From Eledone cirrhosa (taxonomy: Eukaryota), in assembly GCA_964016885.1 (NCBI GenBank), contig OZ024758.1:2046001-2110000 (forward strand): a DNA stretch of 64,000 nucleotides, in the 5' to 3' direction. Below, one piece after another: positions 25,237-62,741 of the stretch. How positions within the stretch are numbered: the first letter of the stretch is position 1; every line of letters begins with the position of its first letter. Made by a program: the position numbers and the translations under genes. Under the pieces are notes generated by a model. The model saw only the letters and a program-made list of their open reading frames with translations. It did not search any database and had not been told where the DNA came from.

Positions 25237-25835
25237 GGCACTGTCATGGTATTAGCTGTCAGAAGTGAAAGTAGAAGGTGACGTCATTCGTCAACCTTCT
25301 CAATGATTTATTTACGTATCACCACGCGTTTATTTACGTTTATGATTTCGAGAGAAACGATAATATACAATCTTATTTAACATGTGCATTAAAAACTACA
25401 CTAGCTGTTACAATTGTAATTAACGTGTAAGAACTTAAATGAAAATATAGGTGGCCCTTAAAAGGGCCGGTGTTGAACTTAAATTTGTTTTCTAATTTGA
25501 TAACCATGACTTGTTTGAACACCGGCCCTTTTAAGGGCCACCTATATTTTCATTTAAGTTAACTCCACTTTCATCGATATGCTTTATTGTTATCTAAGCT
25601 TTTACTTACACGTTAATTACAATTGTAACAGCTAGTGTAGTTTTTAATGCACATGTTAAATAAGATTGTATATTATCGTTTCTCTTGAAAATTACGTGGT
25701 TATTTGGTACCCATATTTTTTTTTTAATAAGTGTATCTCATCATAAACATAAATAAACGCGTGGTGATACGGAAATAAACGATTGAGAAGGTTGACGAAT
25801 ACTTCACTTCTGACAGCTAATACCATGTCAGTGCC
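25237..25835. mobile_element. Foldback non-autonomous DNA transposon (Merlin-like ends) containing histone-type stem-loops
   Basis: Arms of ~240 bp or more are inverted repeats, GGCACTG...CAGTGCC; 8-bp TSD AAAAAATC at 25229-36 and 25836-43. Confidence 0.8.
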
Positions 25836-39996: not shown

Positions 39997-40441
39997 GGTT
40001 GTACTTCGGCATCTGACGACCAAGGTACTCTATGCTTGAAGTGCATAGCGAAGTATGCTAGTAAGACTGATGACTTTTTTGTCTCTGCTCTCAGACTTAC
40101 TGGCGTGCGTATCGCCATTCACTGTTGTCATCTGGTCCGGCAGAGGCGAGGGCTGTCACACATTGCATTCTCCTCTTGACCATGGTCGAGCCGGGTAGAT
40201 TTTGTTATAACCCACCCCTTGACTTTCTGGTCATGTAGGAGGTCGCAACACCTCAATTCTTGGACCCGGTGGCATAACTGACTACTTGTTGTGACCTTGT
40301 GTTTGTGTCTACTGCTAACATTTACTGCTGGGTCTCTGCCATGGTTTAGTCAACATCTACATTGTGTATGATCATCAGAATCAGCATTTTTCATGGAATA
40401 CTTCAAGTATTTTGATGCACTGCTTGTGATCCTGTACTGGA
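39997..40441 (+). other. Putative non-coding 5' UTR exon of DGCR8
   Basis: TTATTCAG acceptor and GTAAGT donor bound a GC-richer, structured island with no long ORF. Confidence 0.45.
40040..40123 (+). ncRNA. Candidate pri-miRNA-like / Microprocessor-substrate hairpin in putative DGCR8 5' UTR exon
   Basis: Stem about 31 positions long (AGTGCATAGCGAAGTATGCTAGTAAGACTGA / TCAGACTTACTGGCGTGCGTATCGCCATTCACT); UG at 40037-38; CATC (CNNC) at 40129-32. Confidence 0.55.
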
Positions 40442-42274
40442 GTAAGTATAAATGCTTTGTGAGTCAATGTTTAGTTAGAGCAGATGTTATGGGGTCTATC
40501 ATGTTTATGTAATGTTAAAATATTATTTTTGACCCCACTGTATCTGTAAAAACCTTTTGCAAATTTATTTTTATTTAATCATTTTTACTTTAGTTTTTTT
40601 TTTTTTTTTTTTCATTTAAATCATTTTAATGTTTTATTTTAATTTTTTTTTTTTATTTAGTTTGAGTTGGTGTTTTTCTATTGATATTTAATACACTTCT
40701 TTGAGAAACTTAAATTTTCTAATGAATAATACGTGAAATATAATTTTATATACCTGTTAATTATGAGAAAACCACCATAAGTATGTTAATTAAACTAGTT
40801 AGGGGATTGAAATTGTTACCTGTTGAAATGAACTAATTTAATGTGGAAAGTGATATAAGGCTAAACAATGTAAAATATGAACTAACAGAAAAGTAAGTTA
40901 CCTGGTAATCTTTTTTTTTTGTTGTTGTTTTTGTTGCTGTTTCTTTTGTCCTGATATTTTGGGACTTAAATTTCTTTATTTAATATAAATTTAATACCAA
41001 AGAGAAGAAACCAGTTTTCTCTGAAAGTCCATTATACTCTGATGAAAGGAATTTTAAGCCCTACAATATTAACAGAAAAAAAAGAACTGCAACAAAAAAA
41101 AAAACCCAAGATTTACCTCACATAATATCTCACATATTTACATTACTCTATATATACTATTATATTTTCACAGTAAAGGCTTTACCTCACATAATATCTC
41201 ACATAACATTTACATTACTCTATATATACTATTGTATTTTCATGGTAAAGGCTTTATTTCACATAATATTGAATCTATGAGATTTTGATATTATTTATTT
41301 TGGGAACATTACCTTAACATAAGTATGAAAAGCCAGTTTGAACTGAAAGAGGTAAGAGAATTCTGGTCAGATATGGCTGGTTTAAATGCTAAAGGGTTTA
41401 AAAGTTTTAGTGCAAAGAAAACTATAGTTATGGCAACGTTTTAATGAAATAAAAATATAGCTACTAGTGCTTTAGTTTGAAATAATATGGTTAAAGAATC
41501 AAATAATTGGAGGACTTTTGTAGTGAAATTGTAAACTTAAAATACTATAAAAGGTTTTAGTAATACCTATATAGGAGTTTATATAAATGTTCAACATGCC
41601 ACATTTAAATACTTTGCTGGTGTTAAAGTATATTTGCTCTGTTTTCAGATTTTCTCTGCTCGTAAATATATTTTGAAAGAACCAAATCCTGTTTTGACTA
41701 TAAACTTTGATTGGTATACTTTTAGAAATAATTCCAGGTTTTCTTTTCCTTGTCAATAATATATTATATATTGTGGACCACAAACAGTATTGACCTAGAA
41801 GTATACTATATATTGTGGACTACAAATATTTAGTATTTACCTAGAAATAGTCAATAATATATTGTAGACCACAAATACATTCTAAGTTCATATCTATACC
41901 GTCTTTCTTGCATGTCCTGACAGGGTCTCTAAAGTCCAAACTTACTTACTTTACTCCTACCCATTAAGCACCCCTACCTCCACCCATACTACTTCCTTCA
42001 CCTGACCCCGAGGCTGTCCAGATATACTTACCATTCTCGTTACATCACATTGCTCATATTGTTGATTGTATTTACTTTATCATTTTACTTCTTCACACCT
42101 TTCTCACCTGACTTAGGCATCACGCTTCTGTTACAAAATAATTGTCACAACATAGCCAGAAATTGTTTCGTTGTCAGTAAATAGCCAGCTGCTTAAACAC
42201 CTTATATATTTTTACAATTTTCTAGAAGCCAGTATATTAGTCCATCACTGCATTTGATCCACCAACACCTTTTA

Positions 42275-42311
<37 letters not shown>

Positions 42312-42606
42312 TACAGTTTTCTAGAAGCCAGTATAATCCATTACTACATTTGATTCACCATCAACCTATTACAAATCTTGCATCATTTTATGCATCTGTT
42401 AGCTGCACTCTGCAATTGAATTTAATTGTAAAAGAGCATAGTAGTAGTAGCCCTCACTTACTTTTTTATATTAACTGTCTTCAACTTTGACTCTTATGAG
42501 AAATAATTCTTTATTTGAAATTAATAGGCAATCCCTGAAATTCCTGGATTGATTCCTATAATGAATATTAAGTTAATGGTAGATCAAAGTAGATAAGACT
42601 TTAGAT

Positions 42607-42910
42607 CAGGACTTCTCAAACTTTTTAGGCCACCAGCCCCCTCATGTTCACATAATACCCTCAGCAACCCCACCTCGATTTACAGAGTCCTACCTACACG
42701 CAAATTGTAAATAATATATAATTAATAAAATCATTAATTTATATATATAATATATATTATGTATAAATAAATATTATGTTTTTTTATTTTACTATATTAG
42801 ATATTTAATATACTATTATATCATCTCTACTGGCCTCTTAGACCCCAGTGCCTCCCTGGACCTTCTCAATGTCCCCCAGGGGGCAGTAGCACCCACTTTG
42901 AGAACCTCTG
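42607..42910. mobile_element. hAT-type MITE (same family as 15067-15363, opposite orientation)
   Basis: CAG...CTG TIRs; 8-bp TSD CTTTAGAT. Confidence 0.85.
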
Positions 42911-44490
42911 CTTTAGATGAAGGTCTTCCAATATCAGTCACAGACATTGTTTCCTCTATATTAAGGTAGGGGCACTGCTTTGTCTCAATCTGCCCTTCCT
43001 GAAAAATACTAACACACACACACTTTCAAATTTTTTAAATTCTGTAACATTTAAATTAAAAAACTAGTGGAAAATGGAATTTTGAGAAACTATATTTATA
43101 TTTTTAAATGTTGGTCAATCAGTGATAAACATTGATTGCCAGCTAAATTATTTATAGAAATATACTGAAGTGAGCTTCATACAACAAACATTTAAATATT
43201 TTTAGAGAAGTTAAAGCTTGAACAACATTCATTACCATCTCCAATTAAAGCGATAAAAATAAAATGGTAGCTTTTAATTAATTACTATAGTCCTTTTATT
43301 GATCTCTGTATGTTTTTATTTATTTTTTTTATTTATTTTTCATTTTCAAAATTTACAATTTTGTTTTTTTAATATCCATCCCATCATTGAAAAGACAGCT
43401 AAGTTTCTGGGGTGTAATAAGAATAAGTTTTAGGTGTGGTGAATTGTAGATTTGTTTCAGTTTTATAGTTTTCACGGTTAACTTTTACGACGCTGAATCT
43501 TTATGAATTGCCTCCCTCGACACTGCATTATCTATTGAGGGGAGATTACTCTATCAGCGACTTATGTCGTGAACAGCGCCCAGAAGGTTAAATTGTAAGT
43601 GTTGTTGGGATTAAGTTTGATGTGTCTTAACTCTTTAGCATTTACATTACTCTATATATACTATTGTATTTTCATGGTAAAGGCTTTACCTCACATAATA
43701 TTGAATCTATGAGATTTTGATATTATTTGAGTGGCCAGTTACAGCTGGTTTAAATGCTAAAGGGTTGAGAGAAGAGTTATTTAAAACCTCAACTCTATAT
43801 ATTACTAGTGATTACAGTAAAATGCCGATATTACACTTGTTTGAAAGGGTCTATTACTGCAGATTTCAGGTTTTTATAAATAGTATCTTTTAGTAGCATC
43901 ACCATTTTTATATAGTATTTCATCCATTTACATTCTGATCTAAGTTGTTGCGAGCTATAAAAAATAACATTTTGCTATAGTAATGTTTGTTTTCTGTCTC
44001 ATAGAAAGCTGTTGTTATAAATATGGTTTCTTAATATCTATTATCAGTAAAGTTGAGAAAAGTGACTTTGTAGGAAAACAACACTAGTGTTTGCTATTAA
44101 AATGGAGAGAAATGTTCTTCTTTGCCCACATTCCTGAGAGGGTCGTAGGGGCAGAGTTCTCAAACACTTCTTCCAGCGGGTCCTGTCAGAAGCAGCCACC
44201 TCTAACTGATCCTGCTGGATCCCCAAAGAAACATGACCAGCCAAGCTCATGGATGTTATCCAACCATCTTGCTCTGGGTTTCCTGTCAGTTGGTTTTGCC
44301 CGTAAAATCTATCCAGTGATTCTTTCTTGAGACAATGATCTGATTCTTTTACTGGCCATTGAAGAATGCTACAGAAACTCTGCTGTAGATAATATGTAGT
44401 TATCCAACTGACTATATTTTTCACCACTAAGGAAAAGAAAAACTTCTAAACATTCTGTCTAGTAACTAATATGTCTTCCATTTATGTTAC

Positions 44491-44906
44491 CCCTTTAGCA
44501 TTTACATTACTCTATATTTTCTATTGTATTTTCGCAGTAAATGCTTTATTTCACATAATATTGAATCTATGAGATTGTCATATTATTTATTTTGAGAACA
44601 ATAGCTTAATCCGTTAACATTTAAACCGGCCATAACCGGCCAGAATTTTCTCACCTTTTTCTGTCCAAACTGGCTATAACCGGCCGCTCATACTTATGTT
44701 TAGGTATTGTTCTCAAAATTAAAAAATATCAATCTCGTAGATTTAGTATTATGTGAGGTAAAGCCTTTATCGTGAAAATACAATTGTATATATATAAAGT
44801 AAATGCTAAAGAATTAACATCTATATGAGCAACCGGTTACAGCCAGTTTGAACAAAAAGAGGTGAGAGAATTCTTACCAGATATGGCCGGTTTAAATGTT
44901 AAAGTG
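44491..44906. mobile_element. piggyBac-type MITE with an inverted copy of its own family (44610-44813) inserted at its internal TTAA
   Basis: TTAA at 44606-09 and 44814-17 flank the inner copy; the outer element resumes in register. Confidence 0.8.
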
Positions 44907-46207
44907 TTAATGACAGTGAAGTGCTTGAAGATTTGGAATTACTTTCCTTCTGCAGACAAAGTATTACACGTCAGTTTATCATTAGTAATAGATATTATTG
45001 ATGAAGGGTTGTGATTGAACAGAAAAATGATGGAAGTATGGAAAAGGTTCTTGATGCCAATATCTAATTCATGGATCAAATTTCAGAAGTGTATATTGAT
45101 TCTGTAGTTGATGGGACAGTAATGCTAAAAAAGAATCTATTGCTAACGTAACCTGAGAAGGTGCGTGGCCTAGTTGTAAGAGTGTTGGACTTACGATTAT
45201 AATGTGGGTTTGATTCCAGGGCTGGGTTGTGTTATTGAGTAAAACACTTCATTTCATGTTGCTCCAGTATACTCAGCTGAAAATGAGTACCAGTAATAGC
45301 TGGGGTTTTAACTCTGTGATGGACTGGTGTTCGGTCCAGGGTAAGTCTTGCACTCTCAGTTGCTTATCACCATGAAACCAGGATAAGCACTAGCCTAATG
45401 AGTATTCTTTTAGATATCATCAACTGCAGGTGTCTTTTAGATATGTGTTATTCTTGTATATTCTATAGATTCCACATAATGGTAAAAGTATAATAGCTTG
45501 ATATGAAATCTAATTTTGTGGTGCAATTAAAGGTAACAGATAAATTTAGTGAATATATGAGTGAAGCTGAGTTACGTTTGGATTATCTTCCAGGTGAGAA
45601 TATATTTAGTAACTATCGATATATTTAGTTATTACTATCGATTAGTCACTTCTATTGATATATTTAGTAACTACTATCGATATATTTAGTCACTATATTG
45701 ATTTATCATGATCTTTCAACTTTCTGAACTGATTGTAAAAACAATGGACTGATTGTTTTAGTATTCAAGTATCTACTATAACGAGGAGATGTATTGTAAA
45801 AAAATACAAGGGTTTTTTATGGTTATGAAAACGGAAAAGGAAGGGGCAGACAAGGGCTCTGGGGTCACAGAAGAATGGGGAGGGCAAAGGAAGTAGGTGG
45901 TGCGCTCTAGGCCAAGGGTGTGGCAGTATTGGGGCTGAGCCCTGCAGACAAGACTGCAGTTGCTCTTGAATTATCTAGTAATCTGTTTTTTTAAGATTTA
46001 CACCCTAGCATTATTAGAGTTGTAGCTTAATAGAGTGGAAATTAGTATTTAGCTTCATTTCACCAAATCTTGCTGTTACCCCTTCCTTGCATTTGAGGTT
46101 TCTACTTTTCCACATTCAATTTTACAGCATTTGAGGTGCTTCTAATACTACAGTGCTACTCTTTAATTTTTAGGCAGAATTTTATCTAAACTGTTTTCTT
46201 GCTGCAG

Positions 46208-46515
46208 ACCAGTATCATATGAACTCAGAGGAAAAGCCAATTAGGATATTTGCGAAATGATACCAACATTGCATGTAGCTTTCTCCTAGTTACCAGGACA
46301 AAGTGTGGAATAATAATTTCGGCTACTTTTCATAGTTGCCATTTGTTAAAACCCCAGAGACTGGTGGCTTGGTTAAATTTAACAAATGCCAAGCAATGGC
46401 TTCTTAGGTTTTAACAGTACCTTACAACTGCAGAACTGAAAGTATAATAGACTGCGAGTCACCTGCTATGAAGTCTCTCTATTCCAAAAACTCCTGACCC
46501 TTGTTCCTGCTCAAG
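46208..46515 (+). other. Putative non-coding 5' UTR exon of DGCR8 containing a long hairpin
   Basis: TTTTCTTGCTGCAG acceptor, AAG|GTAAGT donor, hairpin at 46343-46417. Confidence 0.45.
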
Positions 46516-47564
46516 GTAAGTATTGAAGTGGTCCTCAAGGATGGATGGGTTGATTAACTGCTCCATCTTTCACAATATCTCTTTCTTACTCTGCTACTCA
46601 TCAATTTCTTTCTTTTTGCCCGTATCTAACTAGTCACACCCTATTCCTTTCAAATGTATTCATGAAATAAGAAATGCTAATAGTTTCATCACCTCAGATC
46701 TTGTTAGAATTGGAAAAGTAGGAAACCCTGTCCTTTCTCCTCAGTTTTAAACATTTTTTCTTAGTATTTTAACGACCCCGCCATTTTTACCTCAAGGTAA
46801 AAAATAAAGCTAATATTTTTTTAGTACAGGATCACATGCAGCCTTGTTGTTGTTGTTATATCTTTTTATGGTTTGGCCTGTTTTTTCAGAATTACTTGTT
46901 TTTTTAAAAACTAATGCTTCCTACTTTTACTAGCATTTGCTGTTGTGTGCAGTTGTGTACATGTGTGTGTGTGTATGTATATATGCGTTTGTGTGTGTGT
47001 GTATATACACAAATGCATAGGTGATGGATTTTATTTTTTTTTTTTTTTTGTGTGTGTTAAAACACAAATTGTGAAATCAATAGATGAGCAAGAAGCCTTA
47101 AAGGTTTAGTTTAGAAACCAATAATCATTATTAGAAGAATGTCTTCAAAAGTGACTTTGGAAAAATGTTTAAGGTAATTCTCTCTCTCTCTCTCGTGTGT
47201 AAATGAGATTTTGTGCCAATGTGTACACATCGACACACACACACACACATGTATATTATAAACCATTCAAATTTTTTTTTTTAATATTTTCCATGAAAAA
47301 TCTCAACCTGCTCCAGCTGTTGAAAGTACAAGAATTTAACCCCTATCTACAGTAGAAATATCACATCTTTATTTGTTTTGAGTGGTTTAACTTTTTTTGT
47401 TGCTTTGGAGGTTCCCATCATTTGTTTACCAATTATTGAATATTGGAATTCCAATATCCGATGTTCTCTTAATTTACGATGTTGGTGTCATTTACTCAAG
47501 TCTATGGTTAGATATGGTGTTACAACAACACTTGATTTTTGAATCTGTTTCTTTTTATATACTT

Positions 47565-47850
47565 ACATATGTACATATATATGTATGTATATATATATAT
47601 ATGGGTATATATATATGTATATGGGTATATATATATATATATGTATATGGGTATATATATATGTATATGGGTATATATATATGTATATGGGTATATATAT
47701 ATGTATATGGGTAGATATATATGTATATGGGTATATGTGTATGTATATGTTCATATATGTGTATGTATATGTTCATATATATGTACATATATGTATATGT
47801 GTATATGTATATATGGGTGTATATATATGTATATATAGGTATATATATAT
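47565..47850. repeat. (AT)n/ATATGGGT microsatellite complex
   Basis: Seen directly. Confidence 0.92.
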
Positions 47851-48304
47851 TTATAATGGTTTGCTATTATAATTATACAATAACTTTTAAGGCTCTCACA
47901 TGAATTTCTGCTCAAAACCACAAATATCTGCTGAATTTTCAACAGTTGTCAACTATTTTTTAAAAACATTTTTATATGCATTCAATAAAATGTTTGATTT
48001 TTATTATCCTTGTATAAATTTTTAAAAGAAATTTGCAGTTTTATTTACTGTAAGCAATTGTTCACTTGCTATCTGTAGGTAGTTTCATGTGTGGTAAGGC
48101 TAATGTAAGGGCATCTCTCTTTCCAGATGAGGATTAATTTCTTTGACTAGTTAGCAAGAGAGAGGTGGCTGAGCAGGTCTGTCCGGGTTAACAGTCCAGC
48201 TCTTTAGAAGAGAAGCTGATAGCCAAGCTTGGCTCCTTTATTGCACAGGTCCACAGCTTTGGCTTGAGGCTATCTCAAATCTACAACACAAGTGATAAAC
48301 TGCA

Positions 48305-48866
48305 ATGGAAGAGCCTGGATCTCCATGCAATGCAGATGATGATGAAACGCAAAACAGCAATGATGAAAACTGTGAGAACCATTTGCTGCCACCATCAACG
48401 CAAACGTCCAATCTAACTAATAATAAAAGATTGTACTTTGACACTGATGATGGTAGAAAAAGCGACATAGACTATGGCTGTACTCCTGAAAAACGTCCAC
48501 TAATTTTGTCTCCCGTTTCTGGGGTCATTACCTGTGTTGAAACCTATTTAGACTGTGATCGAGAATCTAGACTTCCTAGTGGAGAACATTCTGCACAAAC
48601 TTCTCATGTGTTTGAAATCATAGACGATCTTGAACTGGATGATGATGGACTGGGCACTGATATAGGTGCTCGGAGTTATATTTCAAATGGTCGAGAATCA
48701 CTTGATCTTTCTAGTGACGATGATGATGATGAAGAATATTTGGATGACAATGAGGTCTATGCCTGGCTGGAAGAGGGGGTGGATTCCCGTAAATCTGGAT
48801 CCGATGGAGAAACAAAGGATGATGGATCGCAGGGGCCAATTGAAGTGCAAAAGATAGTTTTAAAAG
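48305..48866 (+). CDS. DGCR8: DGCR8 coding exon 1 (acidic N-terminus; exon begins at 48127)
   Basis: GCAATGG start; ends ...EVQKIVLK with G|GTAAAA donor; acceptor TTTCCAG at 48126. Confidence 0.88.
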
Positions 48867-51800
48867 GTAAAATATTATTGGATTTTTAAAAATTTGTATT
48901 ATTGTTTGTTTGTTCTTGTTAAACATTTTATTTATATCAATTCCTTTCTTAACATTTTTCACCGATATCATCGTATAACTGCATTATCAACACTTTAGTG
49001 AAAACATCAATTTTTAAACAGTTAATTCTTTCATTATCTACTATGATATCACATATATGAAAAAACTTGACTGTTAATTCTCTTCATCATTATCCTATAT
49101 TCCGAGATGGAAATGTTACCTATTATATGTATAAATTCATTTACCTTTAACGAGGCTTACAAATTACTTTTAATCTTGTGTCAAATTTCTTCTTGTAAAG
49201 AACTAAAACTTATTACTTGTAACCATAGTTCTGTCTTAATTGCAAATGTCTTGTGTATTCAGTATTCTTACCAAATCATTGATATCCTAGTAAAATGTGG
49301 TAGACTGAATTACAAATTCTATTGAACATGTAACTTTATTAAACTAAATAGATTTACTGCTTAACCCTTTAGCATTTACTAATTCTGACCGGATATGGTC
49401 TGTTTAAATGCTAAAGGGTTAAACTAAACAGATTTACTGGTTAATATTTAACAGGATTTTTTCTTTTTTCTATAAAATATATTATCTGTATTTCAGAGAG
49501 AGGCCATGATCCATTTGACATTCTACCAGAAGGTTGGATAATAGTAACTCATAACAGTGGCATGCCAGTATATTTGCACAAAGAATCCAGAGTATGTACT
49601 CTCTCCAAACCATACTTCTTGGGACCTGGTAGTGCCAGGGTAAGTGTGTACATGTATCATCATCGTTTAACGTCCATCTTCCACACTAGCTTGGGTTAGA
49701 CGGGATTTGCCCACTTGAGGCAAGATTGGTCGGGTGACTGTGTCTCGCTCGTATAGGACTCTGGCAGGTTTTCTACGGCTGGATGCCCTTCTTAACACCA
49801 TATATATGTGAGAGAGAGAAGACCCCCTTTGGTCACGAATGACCATAGGATTTGCACCTAGAATTATTTTAATTATTAAGATTGTATTTGTAACAACAAA
49901 AAAGTTTTATATAAAATTATCCTGGAAAGTCTTAAGAATCATTTAACATGGATGATTTTCATAGAACTAGAGGTGGTTTTGGGTGGGTTGGTGTTGAAAC
50001 AGGTAAAATTGTTTGCACCAATTTGAGGTAGAATAGAACTAGGGGCTCCCTTTTAAAGGAATGGTTTATCTTTTGTTAATAATTATATGTAATATTGTAT
50101 GCTGGCCTTCCACAAACAAATCTTACCCAGGCTCGTACCTTGGAAGGAAACTTTCTAAGTGCCAGACCATGGTGTGACCGATGGCAGCCTTTCATCAATA
50201 TTGCAGGTTAAAAATCTAAGTAGTTACTTTCTTTTTTTTTTTGCTAGAAACACGACATTCCTGTTAGTGCCATTCCTTGTCTTCATTATTCCCGGGAATT
50301 GGAAAAAGAAAGTCAACATGACAGTTCTAAAGATATGGATCCTTTATCTATCACTGAAGATCTTGAATGTACAGATAACCAGAATTCTGAGCAAGCTGAA
50401 GACACTGTTGAATCAGGTAAGGTTTTTCACAAGGACATTGAGTTTATATATATTTCATTGACAATATTTGAAGCAGCTTGTGACCTTGTTTTATCAATTG
50501 TTAAACTTGAATTGTTTTTATTTTCGTCTTAACTACTTTCCAATTTCTTCCTGTCTATTGACAGATATTTGTTAAAGAATAAATTTTAAGGAAATATAAT
50601 AAATAGGCTATGTAGCCGGTAAATGCTAAAGGAACGCAACACATCACTATAGCATTTCACCAGCCCCTTACTTCTGTTGTCTCTATCTGTTTATATATTT
50701 ACGTGTAGATGTGTGTGTAACTAAAGCGCAACGTATGTTACTAATGGACGACTAAATCATTTTAACTTGTCTTTTAACAATTTATGGTGGAAACGATTTC
50801 AAATTGTCTTTTCTTAACTCGGGCTGCAACTCATGGTGTCTGACACTCTTACCGGCTACATAGTCACTTCCAAAATATAACATGGTAGAGCGTCGGACAG
50901 CATGCTTTATAGCAGTCATGTCAGACTGAGGGTACCCCCGAGAGCCACATGGGTCAGGGTCACATAGTGTTGTCTGAGGGCCACACTTGACAACTAACTT
51001 TTTATTTTATATTATGAAGATAAAGCATACTTGCGCTGTAAAAACCTTTGTAAAGGGCCGCATGTTTGACATGCCTACTTTACAGCATAATTACATCCCT
51101 TAATGGTCTGAGTTCAAATCCTGCTGAGGTTACCTTTGCTTTTCATTCTTCCAGGGTTGATAAATCTACATTTAAAAGAAATGAAGTGTTCTGTAAGTGT
51201 TTATTGGTAAATTGTTCTGTTTCAGAGTTTCCAGCCACGAGTGAGAATGATAGTGATCAGTTGAATAATAACCAAGATGGTAATACTTGTCCTATGGGAG
51301 ATGTAGATGGTAATTCAAAGACTCCTGCAGTTAAGATTGAATGTGCTGAAGAAAGAAAAAAGGAAAATTCACTAGGTAATTATTATTATTATTATTAATG
51401 CTTATTAACACCTTTTGATATTATATTTCTGAAGACCGAATGTTGTTTATTATTATTTTTTTTTAATTTTTGGTTGTCAAAATTCGGGTGCGTCCTCGAG
51501 GACAAAGCGCCTTCATCTTCGGTAAATACTGTTCTCATTTAGTTTCTAATATTTAGGTATCTAGTAAATCAGACCAAAATTAACCCTTTAGCATTTAAAC
51601 TGGCCATATCCGGCTAGAATTCTCTCACCTCTTTCTTTCAAACCGGCTGCTTGTACTTATGTTAAGGTATTATTCTCAAAATAAATATCAAAATCTCATA
51701 GATTTGATATTATGTGAGATGATTATGTGAAATAAAGTGTTTACCATGAAAATATGGTAGTAAATATAGAGTAATGTAAATGCTAAAGGGTTATGGGATA

Positions 51801-54800: not shown

Positions 54801-57800
54801 TGATACCTACACAACCACTTTACAGTGTAGGCTGGGGGCTTTTTGTTGTGACATAAACCAATTTGAGTATTGATGTATGATAAACCAATTTGAGTATTGA
54901 TGTATGATTATTTTTTTGAATTTCAGAATTTGTATTAAACCCTAGTGGGAAGTCTTATGTATGTATACTTCATGAATATGTCCAACATACAATGCGGGTA
55001 CAACCACGATATATTTTTAGAGAAGTCGGTAAGTACTTGGGCTTTTTTATCCTTATTCTTGGCTTTTGTCATAATTATCCCTTTAGCATTTACATTAACA
55101 GTGGTAAGGGTGTTGGACTTAGAATCATAATGTTGTGGATTCGATTCCTGGGTTGCGTGTTGTGTTCTTGAACAAAATACTTATTTTCATGTTGCTCCAG
55201 TATACTCAGCTGAAAATGAGTACCATCAATAGCTGGGGGTTAACCCTGCGATGGACTGGCGTCCGGTCAAGGGGGAGTCTTGTACTCTGAGTTGTTTCAC
55301 GCCATGAAGCTGGGATAAGCCTCGGCCTAACGAGCCTTCTGGCTTAAGACAGACTTTAGATCTATATATATTATTGTATTTTTGTGGTAAAGGCTTTATC
55401 TTAAATAATTATCTCGCATAATATCGAATCTACGAGATTTTGATGTTATTTATTTATTTTGAGAACAATACCTTAACATCAGTATAAGTGGCCAGTTAGG
55501 GCTAGTTTGAACAGAAAGAGATGAGAGAATTCTGACCTGATACAACCAGTTTACATGCTAAAGGGTTAATGCTGTAAAATAAATGAAATGTAATGTGTTC
55601 TATTCCTTCTTAGTGTTGAATTCCATTAAATATTCTTTATTTCTATAGAAAATGCTCAAACTCCTTATAGTGCTACTATTGTGATAAATGATGTAGAGTA
55701 TGGTACAGGCTTTGCTGGAAGCAAGAAAGCTGCCAAAATGGAAGCAGGTGAGTTCACTCTAACAGTTCCAGTACTTTATATATACTATATATATACTATT
55801 GTATTTTCAAGGTAAAGGTTTTGTCTCATAATATCGAAGGTATGAGATTTTGATATTATTTATTTCAAATCCCGCTGAGGTTAACTTTGCCTTTCATCCT
55901 TACGGGGTTGATAAAATAAAGTACCAGTAATGCACTGGGGTACTTGCTGGCCTTGTGCCAAAAATAGAAACAATTATTTATTTTGAGAACAATATCTTAA
56001 CATCAGTATGAGTGGCTAGTTTAAACAGAAAGAGGTGAGAGAATTCTGGCTGGTTACGGCCAGTTTAAATGCTAAAAGTTTAACATTTATTTATATTTAC
56101 TTTGGTTGGACACGATTCTAAAATATCCTCTTTCCATTTCGATCACGTTCCTCAGTTGTTTACCTGAAAATCTGATTTGTTTTTTATTCTTGTTCCAGCG
56201 AAAGCAACATTGAAAGTGTTAATTCCTGAAATGAATAAGATGACAGAAGATAACAAAAGTTATGAATCTGAAGATCTGTCTGTAAGTAAATTCAAGTGTA
56301 ATAGATGATGATGATGACATTGTACTTGAGTATAAGACAGTCATGGGCAACCTGCGGCTCGCGAAGCTTTCTGAATGGCTCGCCTAAGTCACCTAAGTGA
56401 AATCTTTCTGGTATTTTTTACCCCAACTTTTCAGTCGTAATTTATCTTTCTATCATTTTTACGATCGAGGAAAACGTGTACGAATTCTGAAGAAACAAAT
56501 CAAAACAACCTGAGTTTCTGCCCTTTTTTTTAATGTGGGCACGAATGTAAATTACCGCTTATGGCCCGTCTGATGATGAGCCATATCCCATATAGCCCAC
56601 CTGATGATGAGCCATATCTCATGTGGCCCGCCTGATGATGAGCCATATCTCATGTGCCCCACTTCTTGAAAAAGGTTACCCATGCCTGGTATAAGACTCG
56701 AGCATCCTACAATGATTTCTCCTCTCTCTATCTCTCTTTTTAACGGTTCGTCCTAATATTACATTTTTTGAAGTCGTTTAACATCAAAAATTCTACTTTC
56801 AGTTTTTTGATGAAATAAAAATAGAAGATCCACGTGTCTATGAACTTTGTAATAAAGCTGGACAGCCGACACCTTATCAAATCCTATTAGAATGTCTTCG
56901 CAGGTTAGTATTGGGTTTCAGTGAGAGGAAAACTTTATTTTAAAGACATATTCTGGGGATGAGAGATAAATATTTCATTTATTGGTTTCTGATTTAGGCA
57001 CAAGCCCAACAATTTTGGGGGAAAGGGAAAGTCTCTTATCTCCTTCATTACATAACACACATATTAGATGAAAGTTTTGTCTCTTATCCTCATATCATTA
57101 CACACTTTAGATGAAAGTTTTATCTCCCTCATTATATTACACATATTAGATGAAAGTTTTATCTCCTTTATTATATTACACAAATTAGATGAAAGCTTTG
57201 TCTCCCTCATTGCATTACATATTAGATGAAAGCGATATCTCCTTCATATCATTACACATACATTAGAAAGTTTCATTGAGCTTTTCTGTAATGTTATATG
57301 TACTTGCTACATATTTTTTACTCTTTGATCTGTTGTACATAAAATATTTTTTCACAATGCCAAAAATTGGATAAGTTTACAAATTTGAATATTTGCATAA
57401 TAATTTAAATTGCTTCTGAATTATATTTGTGGTTAGAACGTAATTCTTCAATTGAAATCTTACCTATAGATGCTAAATTTGGTTTTGTAGTTTTAAGTTT
57501 TCATATGAACTTGTCTGACATTGTCTTTCTATATACAAGACTTCTTGTTTTTAGTTCTATTTAAATCAATGCCTTTCATTATAATTTAAAGTAAGAACCT
57601 TTTATGGAAGGACCTTTCATTTAAGAATATCTTGACCATTCTAGGAATTATGGCATGGGAGACACACAGTGTCAAATGGAAATGAAGACTCTGAAACATC
57701 AAAAAAGTGAATTTACTATGACTGTTGGAAAGCATAAAGCATCAGTAAGTTTAGTTTCTGTGTATTTAAGCAAACAGCCTCGTTACACTATGTGGTTTAG

Positions 57801-60843: not shown

Positions 60844-61421
60844 TTCTAGCTTTACACATCTTTGCTAACTTATGCTATCAATGCACTTAAAACAATTTCT
60901 ATTATGTTTCCAATTTTATTGCTTGTAGTCAATCGTTTCTCTCTCTCTCTCTTTCACACACACACACATGCCCATACCCTCTCGCTCTCTTTTTCACACT
61001 CATTCACACACACATGCACTCATACACATATGCTTACTCTTTTCCACATTCATTCACACACACACACAATGCTCACACCCTCTTAACACCGACTTTGGCT
61101 TAAATGTTGTTTGAAGAATAGAACTATTGAGTCAATAACTTGGTGATATTCCATTTCTACACTAATACCAACCTGATCTTCCACAAAAACCATCTACCAT
61201 TTCTATATAACCTTACAGTATGATTGAATTGTATGGAATCCTCAAATGTTTTTCTTTTTTTTTATGTGTGGCTGGGTGGGGGTTACTTTAAGGAACTGGC
61301 TACATTTAGTCCGTTTCTGGAAAAAAATTCTCTTTAAATTTCCAATGTCTTGCACTCTAGACATGAATTATTTGCATAGAACTGTTTATCTCAAAATGCA
61401 GTAAGAAATTACACTCTACCC

Positions 61422-61728: not shown

Positions 61729-62741
61729 CTCTACCCTACATGTCATTTATTTAATTGCATTTACATTTACACCGCATCACTTCAATTTGAGGTGTATATT
61801 CTATACAATGTCTATGTCGATGTATGTAGCTTGCCGTCCTTTCGTTATCGTTGACTGAAGACGGACAGATGTTTCATTTTGATGAACCTTACTCTCGACT
61901 TTTATATTTGCCATCAGAGGATAAGATCCTTAACCTTTAACACGCTCTAGGCGACAGCAGTAATCTCCCCCTTAAAACATGTGATGTCAAGGGAAGCAAT
62001 TCATAAGGTAACTGGCGTGCTAAAGGTTAATGTCCAATTGTTAATCTCCACCACTCCCTCCCTTTCACCTCATCTTCTCATTTTGTGTGCTCCTATTAAC
62101 GATATACTACAGAATAAGTGGATGGAAATTTTAATGTGATAAACCAGGCTCTGCTTCTTACTCCATGCCACCCTCACGTTCATCTTATTACTGACATGGC
62201 ACACCCATATACACAGGTAGTTACCCCAGCCATTAGCTCACCTGAATAACATGAACCGAGCAAAAATTGAAGTTAAAATGATATAGCCTTCTCATCATTT
62301 CTACCATGTATGTGTTATGTACAATACACATATTCTGTATAAACTCAGTATTATCAGATTGATGTTAATTTTTGTTAAAGTTATCTCTTATTAAAAGGTA
62401 AATGCAAAACTGGCGCATGGCTTAGTGGTTAGGGCATTGGGCTTACAATCAGAAGGTTGTGTCCTTGAGCAAGACAGTTTATTTCATGTTGCTCCAGTTT
62501 ACTCAGCTGTGGTGTCAAGATGTATCGGCCATTTCCTTTCCCTTGGACATCATCAGTGGCTTGGAGAAGGGAGGCTGGTATGTATGGGTGACTGCTGGTC
62601 TTCCACAAACAAACTTGCCCAGACTTGTGCCTCAGAGGGGAACTTTCTAGGTGCAAATGCCATGGTCATTCGTGACCTACAAGACTGGTTGAATTTTCAA
62701 AGCAGATATATTTTATGATGGGATAACTCCTTAATATTCCA

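Follow-up and report, generated by a model that had tools for sequence, protein, structure and literature searches.

A catalogued coleoid microRNA hairpin in the 5' region of DGCR8 in Eledone cirrhosa, likely a cephalopod case of Microprocessor feedback

The 5' region of the DGCR8 (Pasha) gene of Eledone cirrhosa appears to contain one real substrate of Drosha, which is likely a cephalopod case of the known feedback loop in which Drosha/DGCR8, the Microprocessor, cleaves DGCR8 transcripts. The DNA analysed, here called the window, comprises 64,000 nucleotides (nt) of contig OZ024758.1 (assembly GCA_964016885.1, positions 2,046,001 to 2,110,000, forward strand), and the octopod DGCR8 gene lies on its + strand. 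An earlier note on this DNA had described four exon-like islands upstream of the start codon, referred to as I1 (39997-40441), I2 (43461-43594), I3 (46208-46515) and I4 (48127-48304), each with a long stem-loop, and had proposed that they form an expanded cassette for Microprocessor autoregulation or an embedded microRNA (miRNA) cluster. The presence of a Microprocessor substrate in the region holds for one of these islands, I3, whose hairpin is, judging from its sequence, the orthologue of the curated miRNA Mir-12546, for which small RNAs are known in two octopuses and a squid.

The downstream gene had been taken for DGCR8, and this identification is confirmed. The exon at 49497 has matches to DGCR8 chains in PDB (E 4e-17). 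Over the first coding stretch, 48305-48865, identity is 90% to an Octopus bimaculoides DGCR8-like protein and 81% to that of Argonauta hians, in two of the three matches. The orthologues of O. bimaculoides and Argonauta begin at the methionine that corresponds to ATG 48305, and an in-frame stop is found two codons upstream of it; therefore, all upstream sequence is non-coding with respect to DGCR8.

The I3 hairpin (Table 1) is identical in both arms to the Octopus vulgaris entry of Mir-12546 (23 of 23 positions in the 5p arm and 22 of 22 in the 3p arm), and its 3p arm is also identical to the O. bimaculoides row of the same table (PMC12553114, supplementary file 2). Over 123 nt of hairpin and flank there are three differences from O. 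vulgaris, at 46331, 46376 (in the loop) and 46421, all of which recur in the contigs of the related organisms discussed below. This MirGeneDB table names Mir-12546 in O. bimaculoides, O. vulgaris and Euprymna scolopes (PMC12553114, supplementary file 2), and MirGeneDB 3.0 places the origin of Mir-12546 at the Coleoidea node (PMC11701709, supplement). In E. scolopes, the supplementary lists of PMC8125070 contain miRDeep2 precursors at a single locus, on scaffold SCSUXZT_182134, with a score of 15 in the light organ and 290 in haemolymph, and motifs of the I3 hairpin match both entries (supplement file 1). Since orthologous hairpins yield small RNAs in octopus and squid according to these papers, the Microprocessor presumably cuts those orthologues.

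By eye, 44 of the 48 arm bases match the squid row, with a loop that is unlike in both sequence and length. All pairs survive the four arm differences: two convert a U-G pair to C-G or U-A, one creates an additional C-G pair and one falls in a mismatch. The dominant arm is the 3p arm in octopus and the 5p arm in squid, and the ends are offset by 1 nt. As a consequence of the opposite mature arms and the shifted ends, octopus and squid do not have a dominant seed in common, which fits a role of the hairpin as a cleavage site.

The hairpin lies on the sense strand, entirely within I3 and 1,893 nt upstream of the DGCR8 ATG. The fold of the primary hairpin around it (46333-46430), at -29.6 kcal/mol (z -2.78), is equalled by 2 of 200 shuffles. 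A CNNC motif is found 16 nt past the octopus 3' end (46412), the canonical offset being 16-18 nt. The basal UG, whose expected offsets are -14/-13, is absent when counted from the octopus 5' end and present when counted from a squid-type end, and was given no evidential weight. I3 is single copy, as the genome search returned only I3 itself. The possibility that its stem is a TTAA-flanked miniature inverted-repeat transposable element (MITE) was rejected, given that the stem-end pattern occurs at one place in the genome (itself) against two for the reversed control. An action of Mir-12546 on the DGCR8 mRNA in trans was likewise rejected: the gene span and the 3.1 kb past the stop contain no 7-mer site for the 3p arm, with a single 6-mer at 60918. 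As a separate observation, Mir-12550 is, by eye, similar to Mir-12546 in its upper stem and loop (window 46363-46394 for Mir-12546), and the two may share an origin.

A long stem-loop in each island, as the earlier note had it, is not what the folding comparison supports. When the best unbranched sense hairpin of each island was compared with dinucleotide shuffles, none of 60 shuffles folded as well for I3 and 5 of 60 did for I1, in contrast to 26 of 100 for I4 and 95 of 100 for I2; the same test on four coding exons gave 28/60, 34/100, 91/100 and 94/100. Folded as a whole, I1 reaches z -2.3 (2 of 100 shuffles), with its antisense strand performing equally (1 of 100), and I2 reaches z -2.1 (1 of 100) with a branched fold closed by inverted repeats. 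Both I3 (41 of 100) and I4 (40 of 100) have a whole-island z of -0.2. High z-scores obtained for windows that were trimmed, or picked as the best of a scan, carry a selection bias and were given no weight. A survey of the 42.8 kb left after masking the in-window repeats, restricted to hairpins of at least 24 base pairs (bp) and -24 kcal/mol or better, returned 45 hairpins, 20 of them on the + strand, of which the two strongest both lie in I1. Six of these 20 come from a stretch near 30 kb labelled by eye as resembling a long interspersed element (LINE), which indicates that at this GC content weak hairpins arise frequently. The stretch itself, at about 29870-31750, was judged by eye to be a degraded reverse-transcriptase/LINE-like sequence. 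Rfam assigned no family to any island, either at gathering score or at E up to 5, and all 30 weak matches fall elsewhere, mostly in TA-rich repeats.

The splice-like ends reported for the islands are present, with AG before and GTAAGT after I1, I2 and I3 and AG before I4, yet their score is exceptional for I3 only. The GTAAGT motif alone is weakly informative, with eight sense and six antisense copies in 35810-48126. A crude splice matrix was trained on 14 acceptors and 15 donors of the DGCR8 gene and applied to AG-GT pairs 60-500 nt apart. The I3 pair ranks first among 15,861 sense pairs, and its score is reached by none of the 14,767 antisense pairs. The score of I1 is equalled or exceeded by 50 sense and 47 antisense pairs, and that of I2 by 43 and 37, respectively; as antisense pairs equal these scores about as often as sense pairs, the ends of I1 and I2 are unexceptional. 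The matrix is rough, as seen from the acceptor of I4, which scores -3.6 (rank 288 of 639), and the top-ranked acceptor of the region, at 39879, could lengthen I1 past the 500-nt limit. No reading frame spans any of the four islands entirely. Further upstream, a strong donor-like site at 35283, beside an N gap at about 35610-35809, is a candidate end of a first exon.

Four runs (X1, X2, X3 and X6) of three related organisms, none of them listed as RNA, were compared over 43380-46620. The contigs of X1, X2 and X3 reach 46618, and that of X6 stops at 46473. I2 is not covered in any of the four runs, which is uninformative in either direction. The longest records of these runs, of 13-17 kb, suggest DNA libraries, and the contigs would therefore be evidence of conservation rather than of splicing. 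The relatives show 8 changes in 115 nt upstream of I3 and 11 in the 308 nt of I3, from a difference table that omits a few differences near contig ends (17 listed of 20 for X1). The relatives retain the donor of I3 unaltered, together with a second acceptor CAG at 46210-46212. The indels within I3, one inserting 5 nt and one removing 1 nt, are not multiples of three, as expected of non-coding sequence. None of the 62 paired positions of the hairpin has changed (P about 0.08), and its conserved arms and variable loop are as expected of a MIR-12546 member.

The remaining islands differ in nature. I2 is, on the basis of its sequence, a transposon-like dispersed repeat, a TTAA-flanked MITE, contrary to the claim that the islands match no repeat of the window, which stands for I1, I3 and I4 with their self-matches only. 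The genome search with I2 gave 887 candidates, and of the 40 scored, 39 are other loci at 80-88% identity, most of them over island positions 18-132. In two copies that were aligned, the shared sequence runs from one TTAA to the other and the flanks are unrelated; the terminal inverted repeat of this element accounts for the long stem that closes I2. A related element is found in the window at about 61930-62030 (76% over 50 nt, E 5e-4). With its TTAA ends, imperfect terminal inverted repeats of about 14 nt, many dispersed copies and unrelated flanks, I2 is alike to the known TTAA-flanked miniature inverted-repeat elements, and it is presumably piggyBac-like. It is possible that I2 is an exonised repeat, and nothing in the window data points in that direction.

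I1 is unique, the genome search having returned I1 alone, and is an undecided candidate for further Microprocessor hairpins on the basis of its folding only. Hairpin A is the strongest of the 20 sense-strand hairpins in non-repeat DNA and is the one equalled by 5 of 60 island shuffles. Hairpin B follows about 40 nt past it and has a better antisense fold (-35.6 kcal/mol). Probes from hairpins A and B and from the I4 hairpin found no corresponding precursor among the MirGeneDB table rows listed (PMC12553114) or in the squid lists (PMC8125070), a weak absence, because the species differ slightly; vertebrate mir-3618 itself has no MirGeneDB entry according to the available text of 10.1101/2025.09.09.675111 and PMC11701709. 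The single match to the MirGeneDB table, of the I4 probe to Mir-12550, was taken as chance, since the other sequence of that miRNA is unlike I4, and the squid files gave one chance 8-mer match to the I1 and I4 probes. The proposal of an embedded miRNA cluster is accordingly not supported; the E. scolopes scaffold also carries one precursor, all four occurrences of its name belonging to the two Mir-12546 rows and no other precursor being listed on it. With regard to coding potential, a 47-codon upstream open reading frame (uORF) in I1 has no homologue candidate among 5.8 billion proteins, and an antisense frame of 73 residues was rejected as coding, as its sole match, a 15-residue stretch repeated in a 608-residue protein, was taken as spurious.

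I4 is an ordinary leader, preceded by a pyrimidine run and CAG, with one 7-codon uORF and a hairpin no better than chance, equalled in 76 of 200 shuffles in a further comparison. Two observations concern the gene at and beyond this exon. A 31-bp hairpin at 48093-48184 (-29.6 kcal/mol, z only about -1.1) extends over the splice acceptor in front of the first coding exon, with the pyrimidine tract of that acceptor base-paired to exonic sequence. The stretch NYGMGDT...KASV, present in P0002 and P0003 and encoded in the window near 57646-57744 (region 57586-57745), is missing from the O. bimaculoides model P0001, so that a skipped exon in that model is likely.

Table 1. Positions of the islands, hairpins and other features in the 5' region of DGCR8 (window coordinates).
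Feature	Position	Strand	Remarks
Mir-12546 precursor (octopus ends)	46350-46412	+	arms identical to O. vulgaris entry
Mir-12546 parts	5p star 46350-46372; loop 46373-46390; 3p mature 46391-46412	+	after the O. vulgaris row
Primary hairpin around Mir-12546	46333-46430	+	main stem 46343-46417; outer helix past internal loop
I3, candidate non-coding exon	46208-46515	+	acceptor may shift to 46213; six upstream ATGs
Block unspliced in relatives' contigs	46093-46618	+	about 96% identical; 4 of 4 runs, X6 partial
I1 island	39997-40441	+	splice-like ends; GC 46% against 32% and 26% in flanks; nine upstream ATGs
I1 hairpin A, candidate, primary-miRNA-like	40040-40123	+	-32.3 kcal/mol (-33.0 in the survey of non-repeat DNA); 30 bp
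I1 hairpin B, candidate	40163-40248	+	-31.9 kcal/mol; 30 bp; second of 20
Miniature inverted-repeat element, most of I2	43478-43591	.	TTAA-flanked; dispersed copies
I4, non-coding 5' part of first coding exon	48127-48304	+	hairpin 48205-48283 at chance level
First coding stretch of DGCR8/Pasha	48305-48865	+	protein identity to octopod DGCR8

Taking these results together, we lean towards the reading in which the Mir-12546 hairpin of I3 lies in the DGCR8 transcript, is cut there by Drosha/DGCR8 and thereby limits DGCR8. I3 would be transcribed within the DGCR8 pre-mRNA, and would be either spliced into the mRNA or cut before splicing is completed. If I3 were joined to I4, Drosha would cut 281 nt before the ATG and part the cap from the coding body; the cut would destroy the transcript, DGCR8 would fall, and in that case the Mir-12546 small RNA would in part be a by-product. 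The top-ranked splice pair of I3, its unchanged donor, the arm switch and the curated small-RNA products of the orthologues make such feedback likely. Nevertheless, several observations weigh against it. No spliced read or contig was seen for any island, and the N gap lies upstream of the hairpin in a window in which no transcription start was located. The relatives' contigs are unspliced, and cross the I3 acceptor in every run and also its donor in X1, X2 and X3; the first acceptor CAG, at 46205-46207, is lost in all four; and the 103 nt past the donor, with three changes, are as conserved as the exon. Moreover, near-perfect conservation of the arms is equally expected of an ordinary trans-acting miRNA. 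The unspliced contigs, the lost acceptor, the equal conservation past the donor and the very high conservation of the arms are the reasons to keep, as a possible if doubtful alternative, that Mir-12546 is an ordinary intronic miRNA in the DGCR8 pre-mRNA, cropped harmlessly and directed at other targets, with incidental splice-like ends on I3. Intronic cropping can leave splicing intact, and both the curation of Mir-12546 as a miRNA family and the arms unchanged from O. vulgaris agree with this explanation. It sits less well with the fact that I3 has the best splice pair of the region, an unchanged donor and a second CAG kept 5 nt downstream of the lost one, with the change of dominant arm and seed between octopus and squid, and with the location of the hairpin in DGCR8, the single gene for which feedback of this kind is known. 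That Mir-12546 and DGCR8 are mere neighbours, the former on a short primary transcript of its own or the promoter of the latter lying downstream of the hairpin, seems highly unlikely: the absence of a located transcription start and the poor acceptor score of I4 would allow it, whereas the two are on the same strand and 1.9 kb apart, I4 follows a pyrimidine run and CAG, and the donor-like site at 35283 speaks for a first exon at a greater distance upstream.

The model of the earlier note, with four leader exons that each carry a Microprocessor hairpin and are combined to tune the feedback, is scarcely credible. The AG before all four islands and the GTAAGT after three speak for it, as do the two strongest non-repeat sense hairpins, both in I1, and the real substrate in I3. 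However, I2 is a dispersed repeat, by which the model is largely refuted for that island, the I4 hairpin is at chance, the splice scores of I1 and I2 are matched by as many antisense pairs, and the I1 and I4 hairpins are without an entry among the miRNA list rows, which leaves the expanded cassette with folding evidence alone for I1. Very improbable, too, is a role of I1 and I3 as repressive leader exons that act through upstream ATGs, by reduced translation and nonsense-mediated decay, and not through cleavage. The ATGs listed in Table 1 and the finding that no uORF reaches the coding sequence in six joins tried are compatible with it, but the ATG counts are near chance (7.1 expected in I1 and 5.1 in I3), the 47-codon uORF of I1 is without a homologue, and the conserved hairpin is left unexplained. 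A wider extension of the cleavage reading, which we consider rather unlikely in full, would have a feedback switch built in coleoids, with Mir-12546, one of the miRNA families counted as new in cephalopods, serving chiefly for cleavage on a DGCR8 leader exon that is optional, splicing setting the global miRNA output of each tissue, and the I1 pair of hairpins as a second, uncatalogued layer.

Self-cleavage of DGCR8 is known in vertebrates and in Drosophila, and the available text of 10.1101/2025.09.09.675111 describes unrelated hairpin sequences in the two and a two-hairpin layout conserved between mammals and flies, although the miRNAs are not. Against this layout, one hairpin is proven here, that of I3; I1 offers the candidates A and B about 40 nt apart, and the hairpin of I4 is at chance. 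The vertebrate pair, mir-3618 in the 5' untranslated region (UTR) and mir-1306 in the coding region, shares with I3 a sense-strand Drosha substrate at the 5' end of DGCR8 with an interrupted lower stem, as far as described in the parts of 10.1101/2025.09.09.675111 and PMC2736397 at hand. The two vertebrate hairpins are close together around the start codon, in contrast to a hairpin on a separate upstream segment here and a chance-level one next to the ATG; cleavage of the DGCR8 mRNA has been shown in vertebrates and is proposed in E. cirrhosa. The pasha hairpins of Drosophila (Kadener 2009 and Smibert 2011, as related in the same text of 10.1101/2025.09.09.675111) have in common with I3 an invertebrate DGCR8/pasha transcript and a lineage-specific hairpin sequence, with feedback shown in flies. 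In mouse, alternative initiation of Dgcr8 skips the stem-loop, according to the accessible part of PMC9856966, which would be a shared choice between 5' isoforms, made by promoter in mouse and putatively by splicing here.

Relative to the MIR-12546 family, the window hairpin is an orthologue, with no difference in kind. Its placement in the 5' region of DGCR8 is unstated in the catalogue rows and texts of PMC12553114 and PMC11701709. The miRNA was already catalogued and the feedback principle already known. No text that connects Mir-12546 and DGCR8 was found, in a literature that was not searched under the name Mir-12546. DGCR8, Pasha and Drosha have no mention in the main text and PDF supplement of PMC9699675, 12546 has none in the main texts of PMC11701709 and PMC12553114, and UTR has none in PMC4793324. 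MIR-1306 is described as encoded in a DGCR8 exon in the available portion of PMC8728216, a portion with no such remark for octopus. A metagenome scan for DGCR8 loci gave one locus at 27% identity, which was left unused.

Elsewhere in the window, a fold-back element with nested inverted arms occupies 25237-25835, and its centre carries a back-to-back pair of histone 3' stem-loops (Rfam RF00032), separated by only about 45 nt that contain no histone gene. Its core was found at 40 scored loci with 96-100% identity among 770 candidates, many of them on contig C18. The element is a young repeat that could provide both strands with histone-type 3' end signals, and 28511-28868 holds a shorter relative. 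Two tRNA genes lie on the - strand, at 26387-26458 and 27796-27908; the anticodon loop of the latter contains a long insert.

If the cleavage of the I3 hairpin within the DGCR8 transcript is true, a mollusc lineage would be added to the known cases with a third hairpin sequence, which would point to new hairpins having been recruited repeatedly to one feedback loop. Furthermore, at least one of the 43 coleoid miRNA families (PMC9699675) may then exist for regulation in cis and not for its targets, in a lineage whose miRNA repertoire is strongly expanded.

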